From assembly GCA_964644925.1 (NCBI GenBank), contig CAZXYJ010000001.1:1-25891 (forward strand): 25,891 nt of DNA. Direction: 5' to 3'. Shown here in pieces: positions 20,774 to 25,891 of this stretch. The notes beneath the pieces are model-generated. The model saw only the letters and a list, made by a program, of their open reading frames with translations, did no database searches and had not been told where the DNA came from. Source of the DNA: an uncultured Halobacteria archaeon (GTDB taxonomy: Archaea; Halobacteriota; Syntropharchaeia; Alkanophagales; Methanospirareceae). The number at the start of each line of letters is the position of its first letter. The stretch's first letter is position 1. The translations under genes were made by a program, and so were the position numbers.

Positions 20774-21760
20774 ATGTCAAAAACAACCAATTACAACTTT
20801 GATAAGCAGAAGTGGGGTCATCAAATAAGAGAAGATGACCTAAATCGTATAGCGGCAAATCTCGACTTAATAGATACCGCTATCCATGACCGAGAGGTGG
20901 AATATGGCGCACATGATACAGCAAAAACAGGGGTACATGGTGTTGGATCAGATTATATCGCGAAAGTGTCCAATTCTGACCAAAAGCTACGTATTGTTGA
21001 TTTTCCGGCTGCTGAATTCGATGCCGCAAATAAGATACCTTTACTGGACGCTTCAACGTTTCTGAAGTTGGCACAGATAGTAGGCAATGTCCCTTCTCTG
21101 GATGGAAATGGGAAGCTCATTCTTACAGGAACTTCTCAAATTGGAACTAAAGCGACAGATCTTGCAGCGCTGTGGGATAAGACAACGAAAATAGCCAAAG
21201 CGGATTTAACAGCAGCGGAATTCAATGCAGCCAACGGTATTTGCGGATTAGATGCAAGTGCAGATGTACCTCTTGCACAAATACCGGATACACTTACCGG
21301 TAAAGATGCGGATTCTGTTGATGGTAAAGAACCAGGTACAATTGCGGGTAAAATACCATATCTTGATGCAAGCGCATTTCTTACGTTATCACAAGTAGTT
21401 GGAAACATTCCCGCTCTGGATGTTAATGGCAAGTTAGTGCTTACAGGTTCAGGACAGATAGGCACAAAGACGGCGGACCTCGCCGAACTGTGGAGTAAAG
21501 GGACACTCATAGACGACTCAATGATAGGGCTTAATGAGATACACGCAGAAGGTTCAAGCAACTTCGCTGGTCCTGGCGGTGTCACAATTACACACAACCT
21601 AAATCTTTCTAATTACGCACCACACATAATCCCAACTGCGGATCCAGCTGGTGCGCTCGGCGAAGTATGGATAACGGATGTAGCTGTTAATTCGTTTGTA
21701 GTGCGAAATAGCGGTATCGCAGTGACCTCCTTTACGTGGGTCATACATAATAGGACGTGA
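20774..21760 (+). CDS. Fibre-like structural protein with an internal 50-aa repeat
   Basis: Repeats at 21032-21181 and 21350-21499; C-terminal VTITHNLN...NSFVVRN beta domain. Confidence 0.65.
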   Translation: MSKTTNYNFDKQKWGHQIREDDLNRIAANLDLIDTAIHDREVEYGAHDTAKTGVHGVGSDYIAKVSNSDQKLRIVDFPAAEFDAANKIPLLDASTFLKLAQIVGNVPSLDGNGKLILTGTSQIGTKATDLAALWDKTTKIAKADLTAAEFNAANGICGLDASADVPLAQIPDTLTGKDADSVDGKEPGTIAGKIPYLDASAFLTLSQVVGNIPALDVNGKLVLTGSGQIGTKTADLAELWSKGTLIDDSMIGLNEIHAEGSSNFAGPGGVTITHNLNLSNYAPHIIPTADPAGALGEVWITDVAVNSFVVRNSGIAVTSFTWVIHNRT

Positions 21761-21766
21761 TAGAAA

Positions 21767-22102
21767 ATGCCAACAATAACCAAATCAGGCTCCAAGGTAA
21801 CAGTTGGAGTAATGGAATATGCGGGAATACACATACCTGGAAAAGCTTTCGACTTGAAAAGTCATAATGGCGAAAGAATCCGGGTGCACATCAATAACGA
21901 CAACAAATTAACTATTGAAACCAAACCAACGCAGAAATTACTGGTTTGCGAACTCGACATTCCGGAAAGAAAATATATCCATACCAAAACGGCAGAGAAA
22001 GATGAGAAGGGCGAATACATCATAGAAACAAAAGAGAAGGAATTGAAGCTGGAAGAGATAGAAATGAAAGAATATCCGAAAGAGGTGATGAAAATAAAAT
22101 GA
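21767..22102 (+). CDS. Hypothetical protein (possible fibre adaptor)
   Basis: Lies between the fibre-like gene and the DGR target; ATGA overlap. Confidence 0.6.
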   Translation: MPTITKSGSKVTVGVMEYAGIHIPGKAFDLKSHNGERIRVHINNDNKLTIETKPTQKLLVCELDIPERKYIHTKTAEKDEKGEYIIETKEKELKLEEIEMKEYPKEVMKIK

Positions 22103-23430
22103 CGGAAGATCTGAGTCTAAGTGGATTGAGAAACAGGTTTAACCAGTTGAACGATTTGAATGAGAACTTCGTGGAATTCCCACGCAAAGCGACAAGTGGC
22201 TTTGGCGGTTCTGGAACTTATTTTGATAAAGGTTTCCGGGATGGTGTGTTAATAGGTGGCTGCTGGCTTGCGAAATATCCTATGAGCCGGCTGGACGCAA
22301 CGCCAAAGTCTCAGGGTAGTTCGGGCATACCCGTTTCGCAACCGCGAGTCCCTGCATGGACAACCGTAAACTGGCAAGCAGCACTTGAAGCTTGCAGATT
22401 AATGAACCGAAGCGATGAGCAGGCTTTAGCGAAAGCTTATGTTTCTGGTGGTGGTATTGGCTCTTTGGGAGATATAAACGGCTATCATTACATTCTTATA
22501 GATACCGATGCGCATTTTCTTGAACTTGCCGTGGGGAATCATATTGAGCTCTCACATCCACTTAGCGCAGCCGAAGCGGCTGCAATGAATACAAACAACT
22601 ACGATAATGCAATTCATACCAATACAACGACAGCGCCAACGGTGCGTTTAGGCAGTTCAAATCAATGGGTAGAAGGTGACGCCATTATCTATGAGCGAAA
22701 AGTGGCAAAGTTTGACCAGGTGAACAAGAAGATATATCTTACTGTTGCACTACCCACAAATGCGCTTGGCGTTGCAGACATAACGGCAAAATCAGGCGAC
22801 AGCGTAAGCGTCAGGAAATACGACCTTGTAGGACTTGAAGAGTGGGCAGCAATCAAGTTAGAATGTGCAATGCAGGCAAAAGCTGCGTCACCGTTTGGCG
22901 CGGATGGTTATCCAAAAGGGAATAATTCTTATGGAAGAGATACGGGCGATGCAGACGAATGGAGATATTACGGCGATAACGACCCGACTTACATTGCCGC
23001 TGGACATCCAATTTATAAAGTTCTGTGCGGTTCCGGTCCTGACTCGTGGTTCCATAACAACAACCGCAAGACAGGTGTATGGTGCTACAATGGAAATGTA
23101 TGGGATTGGATAAACGCAAAAGCGTACGATAGAAAAATCCAAGCTGGTTATCCTGGTGAAGGCTTTACGCTTCCAGCAACGAATAATTACGTAGCGACAA
23201 TAGAAGCAGCGGCCGCATTGTGCGGGGCAAAAGATTTGGCTTTACCGGTAACGGTCGGCGCGGCTTGCGCACAGTTTGGCAATGATTACTACTCTCAGAA
23301 TACAGGGGATAGGGCTTTTCTCGTTGGCGGCCGCTACGGCACGACCAGTGGTGCGGGGGTCTTCGCTGCGGGTATCGATACGACGCCTGACTGTGCGAAC
23401 GTGTACGTCGGCTTCCGTGCGGCCTTGTAA
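22099..23430 (+). CDS. DGR target protein, CLec/FGE-like fold (Mtd-like receptor-binding protein)
   Basis: LAKYPMS, WQAALEAC, EEWAA, GNVWDW and C-terminal VGGRY...GFRAAL variable-region pattern. Confidence 0.88.
   Translation: MTEDLSLSGLRNRFNQLNDLNENFVEFPRKATSGFGGSGTYFDKGFRDGVLIGGCWLAKYPMSRLDATPKSQGSSGIPVSQPRVPAWTTVNWQAALEACRLMNRSDEQALAKAYVSGGGIGSLGDINGYHYILIDTDAHFLELAVGNHIELSHPLSAAEAAAMNTNNYDNAIHTNTTTAPTVRLGSSNQWVEGDAIIYERKVAKFDQVNKKIYLTVALPTNALGVADITAKSGDSVSVRKYDLVGLEEWAAIKLECAMQAKAASPFGADGYPKGNNSYGRDTGDADEWRYYGDNDPTYIAAGHPIYKVLCGSGPDSWFHNNNRKTGVWCYNGNVWDWINAKAYDRKIQAGYPGEGFTLPATNNYVATIEAAAALCGAKDLALPVTVGAACAQFGNDYYSQNTGDRAFLVGGRYGTTSGAGVFAAGIDTTPDCANVYVGFRAAL
23312..23427 (+). repeat. DGR variable repeat (VR); 3' boundary inferred from the gene end
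   Basis: 23312-23342 aligns to 23537-23567 with 6 mismatches, all at template adenines. Confidence 0.85.
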
Positions 23431-23536
23431 CTGCCAAACCGAAAGGACGAAAACGAGCACATGGGAAAAAAAATCATAGTCATGGAGGAAAAAAACAAAA
23501 AAGAACCACATGATAAGGTTTGAGCGGAATAAGTCG

Positions 23537-23574
23537 AGGCTTTTCTCGTTGGCGGCAACTACAACAATAGTTCC
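23537..23574 (+). repeat. DGR template repeat (TR), 5' remnant only
   Basis: GCT TTT CTC GTT GGC GGC AAC TAC AAC AAT; AAC/AAT codons sit opposite the varied VR codons; cut off by IS607. Confidence 0.85.
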
Positions 23575-23577
23575 TTA

Positions 23578-24702
23578 TCATATAGAAGAATCTCCCTTTG
23601 ATAAGGTTGGCAGTGAACGGAGACTATAAACTCCCGCCAATCCCAGAGCCTCAAGATTCTTGGACGCATTGTAGTCCGCGTTTGCAGTATAACCGCATCT
23701 CAAACACACGAATCTCTCACCTCTGCGATTTCTCCTATCTATGTTGCCACAAACGGCGCATCTCTGCGATGTTTTCCAGGGGTTTTTGAGACTTATGCGT
23801 ATCCCCTTTTCTTCACAAATCTGCTTTAACCGCTCGCCGACCTTGGCATAAAGCCAGAAAGATAGGAGTCTATTCGATATTCGAGAGAACTTCCCCCGCT
23901 TACCCCTCTTCACATGCTTCAAATTCTCTAAAGAGATAAGTTTAACCACGTCAAGATTTAGCTGTTTGAGGAATCGGTTTGCCTCTGTTTCAATGAAGTG
24001 GTGCCAGCTTTTCCGCCGCTTTCCACCCCTCTTAATCGTTTCTTTCAACCCCTCTCCTATAAATTGATTATCAGATGTAACGAGCATAGAGTTTAATCCG
24101 CTATCTATTCCAATTACTTTTCCCTCTTCCCTCAATTCCGGGCGTTCCTTCTCAAACACCAAATCAATAAAAAGCCCTTTTTTGCGGTTGTACCCCAACC
24201 TTACTGATTGCCCCAGAACCCACCCCTCCTCTCGGAACTTATTGGTGTGGTGAGTCCAGTTAAAGGGAATGATAAGTTTAGGAACCCCGGAACCAAATTT
24301 AAGGCACATATCAAAAACCCCGTTAAAAGGTGTGATTTTTACAAACCGGCCATCCAGATTGGCAATAGCGGATTTAACCCTCGGCATCCGCCTCCTTTTC
24401 TTGGTGAGTTCGTTTTGAGAAAGAACCGTCTCATTTGCCTGTTTCGCACCGCATTGGCTCAATCTCGCGGTAACTCCAAATCGCTCCTCCACTCCCTTTG
24501 TGAACTCCTTTTTAGGGAGGGCGTTATCATCTGTGTCGTGGGATGCCCATAGGCGGGTGATGGAGTAGTTAAGAATGTTTTTGTAGAGGTGGAGGAAGGT
24601 TTTTAACTTCTCCGCCTTGCCCTTATTAATGCAGCTATTGAGGTAGATTCGTGATGTTCTCCTCATCCACCCAGAGTGTTTTCGTTTATATCGCTTCTTC
24701 AT
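23578..24702 (-). CDS. tnpB: TnpB RNA-guided nuclease
   Basis: RuvC-I VIGIDSG, RuvC-II SLENL, zinc finger CAVC...CLRC, RuvC-III NADYNASKNL. Confidence 0.93.
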   Translation of the reverse strand: MKKRYKRKHSGWMRRTSRIYLNSCINKGKAEKLKTFLHLYKNILNYSITRLWASHDTDDNALPKKEFTKGVEERFGVTARLSQCGAKQANETVLSQNELTKKRRRMPRVKSAIANLDGRFVKITPFNGVFDMCLKFGSGVPKLIIPFNWTHHTNKFREEGWVLGQSVRLGYNRKKGLFIDLVFEKERPELREEGKVIGIDSGLNSMLVTSDNQFIGEGLKETIKRGGKRRKSWHHFIETEANRFLKQLNLDVVKLISLENLKHVKRGKRGKFSRISNRLLSFWLYAKVGERLKQICEEKGIRISLKNPWKTSQRCAVCGNIDRRNRRGERFVCLRCGYTANADYNASKNLEALGLAGVYSLRSLPTLSKGDSSI

Positions 24703-25270
24703 TTTCCCCCTCCTTCAGTTCTTTAATTATCTTCTCTGTCTTCCTTTTACTCCTTCTCAATCCGTAATAGCGAGCACAGAAAGAGGTTATGATAGAAACT
24801 AAATCCTGCATCAAATCATCTTTATCCTCTGTTGCTTCATTTACAACTTCTATTTCACAATCAAGGGGCAAGAGGAGAGTGGAGAGGTAATTAAAGCCAA
24901 AGCGAGTTAATCTATCCTTATGCTCTACGATGATTTTTGTTGCCTTCCCCTCTCGCAGTATTTTTTGGAGTTTTGGACGGTTATCATTTACTCCAGAACC
25001 TACTTCTTTAACGACTTCTTTTATCTGATAACCACGGGCAATTGCATATTGTGTCAGTCTATCCGCTTGACTATTAAGATTGTTTTTATTCTCTGAAGAC
25101 GAAACACGGGAGTATATCACAATATAATCCCCCCTCCTCACCATCTCTTCTGGTACGATGATAGTGCCGCTTTCCGTCTTGAAAGCCCCCTTTATCTTCC
25201 CCGCTTTGAACCATTCCCAAGCAGTGCGATAACTTATCCCCAACCCCTTTGCATAAACCGATAGTTTCAT
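24686..25270 (-). CDS. tnpA: IS607 serine transposase TnpA (start reassigned to ATG 25270)
   Basis: N-terminal MerR-like HTH (GISYRTAWEWFKAGKI), catalytic YSRVSS, EHKDRLTRFGF. Confidence 0.95.
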   Translation of the reverse strand: MKLSVYAKGLGISYRTAWEWFKAGKIKGAFKTESGTIIVPEEMVRRGDYIVIYSRVSSSENKNNLNSQADRLTQYAIARGYQIKEVVKEVGSGVNDNRPKLQKILREGKATKIIVEHKDRLTRFGFNYLSTLLLPLDCEIEVVNEATEDKDDLMQDLVSIITSFCARYYGLRRSKRKTEKIIKELKEGENEEAI

Positions 25271-25296
25271 GTGATAATTATAATAAGAAAACATCC

Positions 25297-25345
25297 TATA
25301 TAAATGTTTAACTATTTTTACCTATACCTAACTATAAAATCATAT
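25297..25345 (-). promoter_or_regulatory. tnpA TATA box and IS607 left-end repeat array
   Basis: TTTATATA on the minus strand (25297-25304); TA(A/C)CTAT at 25309, 25319, 25329. Confidence 0.65.
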
Positions 25346-25355
25346 TGCTTTAATG

Positions 25356-25582
25356 ATACTGTATGGAAGGATCACAAAAAACTAAGAAGAAGAAATGTTG
25401 AGAGATTTATAAGCAGGCTGGATAAATTTGATAAAGCATCCTCAATAACCCCCTTCATCGTAGCATCTCTGATGAGTTGGAAAGGATATTCTATACACGC
25501 GGACGCTTTTGGATTGACAAAGCATTTATATGAATCACACCCGGTAATGCAAGCATCGGCATTGGAGAAATACACTGATTGA
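25356..25582 (+). pseudogene. C-terminal remnant of a DGR reverse transcriptase
   Basis: TVWKDHKKLRRRNV...SLMSWKGYSIHADAFGL resembles the post-FLGY / thumb segment of DGR RTs; no catalytic palm present. Confidence 0.75.
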
Positions 25583-25585
25583 AAT

Positions 25586-25885
25586 ATGACAGAAGATTAC
25601 CACCATTTCAGTGATTTCGCCGATACACAACCACAGTTTGAAGGCGAGAAGAAAAAAATACAAGAAATACTCAACAAGGAAATCCTCATTATTGGCTTTC
25701 GTATAGGCAAAAGCAAATACAAAGGCAAGAAATATCTTACGTTGCATTTTAAGTTGGATGGTGAAAAATATATTGTGTTCACTGGATCCAAGCCTTTGAT
25801 GGACTGTGCTCAGGAAGGCGAAAATGAAATGCCATATTACACGACCATCATTCAAAGAGGCGAATATTATATAATGACAAAATGA
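25586..25885 (+). CDS. Small beta-rich hypothetical protein directly downstream of the RT remnant
   Basis: Complete 99-aa ORF starting 3 nt after the RT stop; ILNKEI...VFTGS...PYYTTI. Confidence 0.7.
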   Translation: MTEDYHHFSDFADTQPQFEGEKKKIQEILNKEILIIGFRIGKSKYKGKKYLTLHFKLDGEKYIVFTGSKPLMDCAQEGENEMPYYTTIIQRGEYYIMTK

Positions 25886-25891
25886 ATCTGT

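Follow-up and report, generated by a model that had tools for sequence, protein, structure and literature searches.

A DGR was reportedly described by Paul et al. in 2015 in ANMV-1, a virus of ANME archaea (KP703175; here L171). The locus analysed here, in a 25,891-nt stretch of DNA referred to below as the window, has in common with ANMV-1 a target gene with a C-terminal VR, a TR, an RT and an ORF of 98-99 aa, but the window copy lacks 82 nt of the TR and the whole RT domain, where an IS607-family element now lies. For the TnpB proteins of both IS605 and IS607 elements, the use of a guide taken from the right-end flank and the cutting of transposon-free alleles are established (bioRxiv 10.1101/2023.11.20.567912), and IS607 TnpB has been reported to cut vacant sites, by which the element is retained (Zedaveinyte et al., bioRxiv 10.1101/2023.11.20.567912). 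In CboIStron, the core dinucleotide found at both junctions is the 3' end of the TAM, namely GG within TGGG (bioRxiv 10.1101/2023.11.20.567912). In CboIStron the omega-RNA overlaps the right end, and recombination restores the element once TnpB has cut a vacant site. A serine TnpA, scarless excision, a core dinucleotide, an omega-RNA at the right end and a flank-derived guide are common to CboIStron and, as predicted from sequence, the present element. Unlike CboIStron, however, the present element has a TA core following G rather than GG within TGGG, contains no group I intron, belongs to an archaeal lineage with a virus as its apparent carrier, and has its scaffold wholly inside the tnpB ORF, with the stop codon 10 nt from the element end.

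ISFba1 and 22 other IS607 TnpBs work with guide RNAs derived from RAGATH-18 (Cell Res 2024, PMC11061315), and in 23 IS607 TnpBs other than the present one AG-rich TAMs adjoin the left end (PMC11061315). With that group the present element shares a compact TnpB of about 380 aa, the RuvC triad, a predicted TAM at the left end and a predicted guide located 3' of the scaffold. Their guide RNA is encoded downstream of tnpB and constitutes an Rfam family and their TAM is AGGAG or GAGGG, whereas no Rfam match was obtained here. In bacteria, an IS200/605 TnpB was shown to act as a gene drive on multicopy plasmids (Mears et al., PMC11870625). The guide keeps a record of where the element inserted; plasmid copies lacking the IS are cut, and those carrying it come to predominate, a course of events proposed here for co-replicating viral genomes. 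In contrast to those plasmids, the replicon here would be an archaeal virus, and the driven allele would also carry a 1-kb deletion abolishing the DGR. A search for literature joining DGRs and TnpB found nothing on a DGR as a target.

The window is the entire contig C1 of a 1.33-Mb, 70%-complete MAG that encodes mcrA; an archaeal 16S gene was sought in this 70%-complete MAG and none was found. Runs containing the window sequence are marine-sediment and cold-seep metagenomes, those listed being all marked as DNA. The contig is considered viral because it encodes a terminase and a Mu-F-like head protein, and the carrier appears to be an ANMV-1-like virus of methane-cycling archaea. The DGR components in the window are as follows.

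22099-23430, plus strand: DGR target gene (ORF) encoding 443 aa, with the VR at its 3' end (about 23313-23430).
23538-23569, plus strand: TR remnant, the first 32 of about 115 nt, from the direct repeat and an alignment with the TRs of L007, L055 and L168.
25359-25582, plus strand: 3' remnant of the DGR RT gene, residues 278-351 only, from BLASTP against the RT of L007.

The 443-aa target protein gave no Pfam match and shares 85% identity with the target of the IMG/VR relative L007. The top direct repeat in the window (23538-23562 = 23313-23337) places the TR copy 225 nt downstream of the VR. Over positions 23537-23567 the two copies differ at six positions, all of them TR adenines, which is the DGR signature of VR/TR differences at template adenines; in the L007 pair this holds for 21 of 21 differences. 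The only TR/VR difference off TR adenines is at 23568 (T of the TA core) opposite VR position 23343 (G), and the position equivalent to 23568 is T in the TR of all intact relatives. One contig from run X8 (depth about 50) skips 343 nt within the DGR target gene (22460-22804), which suggests a length variant in the middle of a putative receptor-binding protein. A 443-aa ORF beside a solo tnpB in L015 was considered as a second DGR target and rejected, as the BLASTN similarity of that locus to the window was restricted to tnpB.

A full DGR cassette is present in the relatives L007 and L166-L171. In L007 it consists of a VR, a 115-nt TR, a 351-aa RVT_1 protein and a 98-aa ORF, the RT sharing 77% identity with that of ANMV-1. 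The RT remnant in the window shows 81% identity to the L007 RT over 74 aa (BLASTP); as the RVT_1 domain of L007 spans residues 81-279 of the 351-aa protein, the window copy is without the whole RT domain. Of a complete TR and a DGR-type RT, only 32 nt of TR and RT residues 278-351 are left in the window, and the remainder of the TR, sought in the window and in the MAG, was absent from both. Compared with L007, about 1.03 kb is missing, comprising 82 nt at the 3' end of the TR, then the spacer, then codons 1-277 of the RT. The missing segment is bounded by TA sites in L007 (9491-9492 and 10521-10522), and the last two bases of the TR remnant are themselves the TA crossover site (23569-23568). 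The insertion thus reads as a replacement of about 1.03 kb, more than a simple interruption of the TR, a point missed by an earlier reading of this DNA made without database searches (the sequence-only reading). A search of the MAG for a DGR RT found none, the sole reverse transcriptase with a Pfam RVT_1 match being on contig C5 (L006; G000, 949-2328); this protein looks like the group II intron RT/maturase type and unrelated to the DGR. Structured RNA-like sequence was noted upstream of the L006 RT. Since the DGR RT is absent from the MAG, the local DGR is dead and its VR frozen.

The element occupying the place of the missing segment comprises the following features, all on the minus strand.

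25358 to 23568, minus strand: IS607-family element, 1791 bp including the TA at both ends, delimited by BLAST against other copies and L007.
25295-25358, minus strand: left-end non-coding region with a TTTATATA box upstream of tnpA, from an alignment of five left ends.
25294-24686, minus strand: tnpA, IS607-type serine transposase (NCBIfam NF033518 transpos_IS607; Pfam Resolvase and HTH_17).
24702-23578, minus strand: tnpB, 374-aa RNA-guided nuclease (Pfam Cas12f1-like_TNB; NCBIfam guided_TnpB).
23568-23751, minus strand: omega-RNA-like scaffold within the tnpB 3' end, including an invariant block and a terminal hairpin (covariation, RNAalifold).
23548-23567, minus strand: predicted guide of the omega-RNA, made up of the 20 nt of flank next to the right end and beginning with TTGTTGTAGTTGCC (19 copies diverge after AAC-TA).

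By BLAST the element spans 23570-25355, and its flanks correspond to L007 up to 9492 and from 10520. TnpA scored 184 bits against transpos_IS607 (cut-off 110) and contains the catalytic motif YSRVSS; its start is probably the second ATG at 25270, the homologue in L014 being called at 195 aa. The left-end region opens with the TA core at 25358-25357, and its TTTATATA box is an archaeal-type TATA box that is kept in left ends and fits expression in an archaeon. At the right end, 19 independent copies from Methanoperedens, Ethanoperedens, Thermoplasmatota and metagenome contigs all showed a hairpin followed by AAC-TA, after which the sequences diverge; the base before the TA is C in 19/19 and the first flank base after it is T in 18/19. 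Members of the close family have TA-TCATTAAAGCAA at the left end and those of the Thermoplasmatota family TA-TTAA, with G as the base before the TA in all 13 independent insertions and G or T as the second base before it in 11 of them. The element therefore bears the hallmarks of IS607, with a TA core at both junctions, left and right ends unrelated in sequence and conserved ends in differing contexts (19 right ends, 13 left-end flanks); no terminal inverted repeat pairing both ends was found among the listed window repeats. By the same logic as for CboIStron, the core would be TA, the target site G-TA-T and the TAM about (G/T)-G-T-A. Both ancestral sites, one in the TR and one in the RT gene, are G-TA-T on the element strand, and both junctions therefore look TnpA-made.

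No second copy of the IS was found in its own MAG, which contains only a 33%-identical tnpB on contig C15. In a scan of metagenomes with the left-end motif, 80 listed loci were examined and nearly all were chance matches or belonged to a repeat family unrelated to the IS; just two were retained, L110 after confirmation by tblastn and L108 on similarity in the left end. The members of the unrelated repeat family (L060, L063, L064, L068, L069 and about 20 more MWV* metagenome loci) share the 14-nt motif TATCATTAAAGCAA, always with CGCCAATTACAC before it and AGATTGGGCTTT after it, and neither tnpA nor tnpB was found near these repeats.

TnpB matched Pfam Cas12f1-like_TNB with E = 2.8e-16 and NCBIfam guided_TnpB (NF040570) with 104 bits (cut-off 100). 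The sequence-only reading had placed the tnpB stop at 23578 and counted all three RuvC acidic residues as present, and both statements hold: the stop is a TGA at 23580-23578, and the residues are D200 (GID), E259 (LENL) and D343 (NADYNA). These three are invariant or nearly so among 25 homologues of 54-90% identity, as are C315/C318/C333/C336 of a CxxC...CxxC zinc finger. In alignment the three acidic residues fall on the GID, E-L and NADYNA motifs of AsCas12f, and the dead mutant in PDB 7wju has Ala at the D200 position. The closest structural relatives by sequence are Cas12f proteins, with a weak match (E = 1.9e-5) to PDB 8iaz, putatively the ISFba1 TnpB. TnpB relatives in IMG/VR share only 27-39% identity with the window protein.

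The overlap of an omega-RNA with the tnpB 3' end, which the sequence-only reading cited as known for TnpBs, was borne out in the form of a conserved, covarying predicted scaffold that ends at the right end. In an RNAalifold consensus of the last ~180 nt of 15 copies (alignment A2), 37 pairs were predicted, 13 of them with compensatory changes. Cells were paired in 96% of cases compared with 38-48% with slid partners, and the covariation score was 0.367 compared with 0.05-0.11 with slid partners, a value reached by 0/500 shuffles; the single-sequence fold of the scaffold gave z = -4.2. The right-end hairpin is present as an 8-bp stem (23574-23581 paired with 23599-23606), and in the 15 related copies 5/5 consensus pairs of the terminal stem are changed on both sides. 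A 33-nt block of the scaffold is nearly invariant at the nucleotide level, third codon positions included, and the window scaffold equals the family consensus across this block. An Rfam scan of 22000-25891 on both strands (E <= 1) returned a chance miRNA match only, with none of the IS605-orfB or RAGATH families. In a single-sequence fold of 23548-23767 on the minus strand, the 5' part of the scaffold (GUGGCAAC...) is base-paired to the predicted guide, a pairing that may be due to chance or may represent a guide-sequestering fold.

The position at which the guide begins was derived from the right ends. The sequence-only reading took the element to end at 23573 and the guide to be the reverse complement of 23553-23572, starting AACTA. 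The bases that it quoted after the hairpin on the tnpB strand are correct as sequence, and the hairpin does end at 23574, but AACTA terminates 19/19 copies. As this pentamer is kept whatever the flank, the guide is predicted to begin at 23567 instead of 23572, the earlier assignment being 5 nt off in that it included the element end and core. Also against it, homology to the intact TRs of relatives ends at 23569, and 23570-23572 (GTT) have no counterpart in the TRs of L007, L055 and L168, which read CCG there; in the earlier register guide positions 1-3 would therefore be mismatched to an intact TR. That register is thus very unlikely to be the true one, and the flank-derived guide predicted from 23567 is TTGTTGTAGTTGCCGCCAAC on the tnpB strand.

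With the guide set in this register, uninterrupted TR alleles carrying a compatible predicted TAM were found, as the sequence-only reading had expected of relatives with a working DGR. Specifically, read on the element strand, the intact TRs of L055 and L166-L169 show CCGG-TA and then 23 nt that match the right-end flank perfectly, and that of L007 has GG-TA followed by a 17-nt match to the predicted guide. The leading guide match falls to 8 nt in L170 and 5 nt in ANMV-1, whose TR differs at guide position 6, and these more distant relatives would be expected to escape. The local VR, which had been predicted to be spared, has TC instead of the TA core and mismatches at guide positions 1, 4, 5, 10 and 11, making five in the first 11 positions. 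TR adenines make up 7 of the first 12 guide positions, and diversified VRs should therefore generally escape. A TAM of G-TA is put forward from the G-TA in 13/13 left-end flanks and its absence from the 19 right ends (C-TA), although insertion flanks reflect the choice of TnpA as much as the specificity of TnpB. Since the right-end junction is C-TA and not G-TA, the element's own junction would be protected. The present left-end flank reads AG-TA, and as A at -2 occurs in only 2/13 flanks, cutting of the element's own donor joint could be weaker. No other guide match with <=2 mismatches beside a G-TA was found in the element's own MAG. An omega-RNA ending before 23572, an inactive TnpB and intact TR alleles lacking a compatible TAM were the grounds on which the sequence-only reading would have given way, and on sequence none of them was found; in those parts that computation can address, the reading is supported once its register is moved by 5 nt.

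The distribution of alleles in the metagenome runs was compared on contigs. In run X8, from a sister sample of the same study, contigs cover the viral flanks at about 200-330x (about 260x) and do not cover the IS; one contig passes 23569 into an intact TR, and a second leads from RT sequence into 25356. These communities contain multiple copies of the IS family, and a number of contigs terminate at IS ends, as might be expected if a host IS had been wrongly joined to viral DNA during assembly. Against such an artefact, the junctions are spanned at 100% or 99.8% identity in three assemblies made independently (L164 both junctions, L161 the right-end one, L165 the left-end one), the depth in run X1 is even over flanks and IS (17-23x), and each junction coincides precisely with a G-TA-T site in the ancestral sequence; wrong joining is scarcely credible as the origin of the locus. 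The IS+ junctions are thus present in L164, L161 and L165, and L166-L169 have an intact TR. JGI assembly 3300028837 contains both the IS+ contig L164 and the IS-free DGR contig L168, in an assembly that may pool samples. Run X7 contains a right end that equals the window over 23566-23641 but is joined to another flank, and this suggests that the IS was recently mobile in the community.

Some further observations concern the element ends in these assemblies. Contigs L014, L016, L018 and L162 have their ends close to the IS right end, within 6-80 nt of it (that of Logan contig L162 is exactly at 23569), consistent with a repeat or an allelic branch at the junction. X7 and X8 each contain a contig with only a 72-nt left end (25288-25359) and unrelated sequence on both sides, at about 262x in X8, equal to the virus depth; this may be a solo end or a related element with other cargo, located in the IS-free virus or in a host.

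The similarity of the window to the abundant IS-free virus in X8 is uneven along the contig. Contig pieces of about 290-690 nt covering 21500-23306 each differ from the window at 0-2 positions; then come 18 differences over 23277-23569 and 42 in the 536 nt of 25356-25891 (92% identity). Compared with L169, the window differs at 6 of the 103 positions of TR and non-VR spacer that precede the junction. This abrupt step in divergence near the IS may reflect ordinary mosaicism among viruses, or it may mark a co-conversion tract.

The following course of events is proposed for the locus. A recently active IS607 element of archaeal origin would have inserted at a G-TA-T site in the TR of an ANMV-1-like viral DGR, and a second event at a G-TA-T inside the RT gene would have removed the intervening 1.03 kb, either by a second insertion and recombination between the two copies or by a TnpA-mediated adjacent deletion, two routes that fit equally. 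If transcription continued beyond the right end, the TR remnant, read from 23567 downwards, would be added to the scaffold as a guide, and the TnpB-omega-RNA complex would cut any copy of the site without the transposon. Two kinds of target would be exposed, the donor joint left after excision by TnpA and the intact TR of related viruses in the same cell, both presenting G-TA and then a matching target. Neither the junction at the element's right end, with its C-TA, nor the diversified VR, with a TC core and mismatches in the seed, would be cut. We put at roughly 60% the probability that the module works and takes its programming from the TR in this way. The sequences themselves show the anatomy of the locus, the ends of the element, the covariation of the RNA, the catalytic residues and that matching IS-free alleles exist; the identity of the TAM, the expression and length of the guide, cleavage and any effect on the population are all inferred.

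The element may on the other hand be a passive wreck, in which the IS killed the DGR and its TnpB or omega-RNA is unexpressed or ineffective in the virus, or co-infection with IS-free relatives is too rare to matter, and the TR-derived guide would change nothing biologically apart from the loss of the DGR. This would agree with the single IS copy in the 70%-complete MAG and with the low depth of the IS+ allele (about 18x, compared with about 260x for the IS-free allele in the sister sample). An exact scan of IMG/VR viral contigs with the scaffold block returned zero matches, which implies that the IS family is not a regular viral passenger. However, tnpA and tnpB are intact with all catalytic residues present, the invariant block of the scaffold does not deviate from the family consensus, the left end retains a conserved archaeal-type TATA box, and recent activity is suggested by the identical right end found elsewhere in X7. 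A passive wreck is accordingly graded as possible, with a chance well short of even.

If the module is functional as proposed, repair of a cut genome from an IS+ genome would copy both the IS and the DGR deletion into it, and the step in divergence around the IS could be the co-conversion tract of such a homing event. The TR must stay constant for the DGR to work, and it would therefore be an unusually durable target for a drive. That the IS+ allele is at present an active gene drive among viruses of ANME archaea, converting DGR-proficient genomes to DGR-null ones through cleavage of the TR, is nevertheless considered unlikely. The sequence-only reading had proposed an accidental drive or superinfection-exclusion activity aimed at a DGR; this amounts to the published function of TnpB, the cutting of transposon-free alleles, with nothing specific to DGRs. 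Every TnpB element is programmed by its own flank, so that no new mechanism is added, and the case appears to be canonical TnpB homing in an uncommon setting. What distinguishes it is that the IS607 lineage is archaeal and uses a TA core, that the scaffold lies wholly inside the ORF and that the carrier is viral; in addition, the target is constrained to stay constant and the insertion is linked to a deletion that abolishes the DGR.

Should the nuclease prove active, the locus would represent a selfish RNA-guided nuclease aimed at the DGR template, the one part of a DGR that is unable to mutate away, and a loss-of-DGR allele would spread among co-infecting viruses. The IS+ and IS- alleles, the predicted guide, the inferred TAM (G-TA) and the escape variants (the VR and the ANMV-1 TR) together form a defined system, which suffices to test TnpB homing in viruses as well as this archaeal TA-core lineage of IS607.
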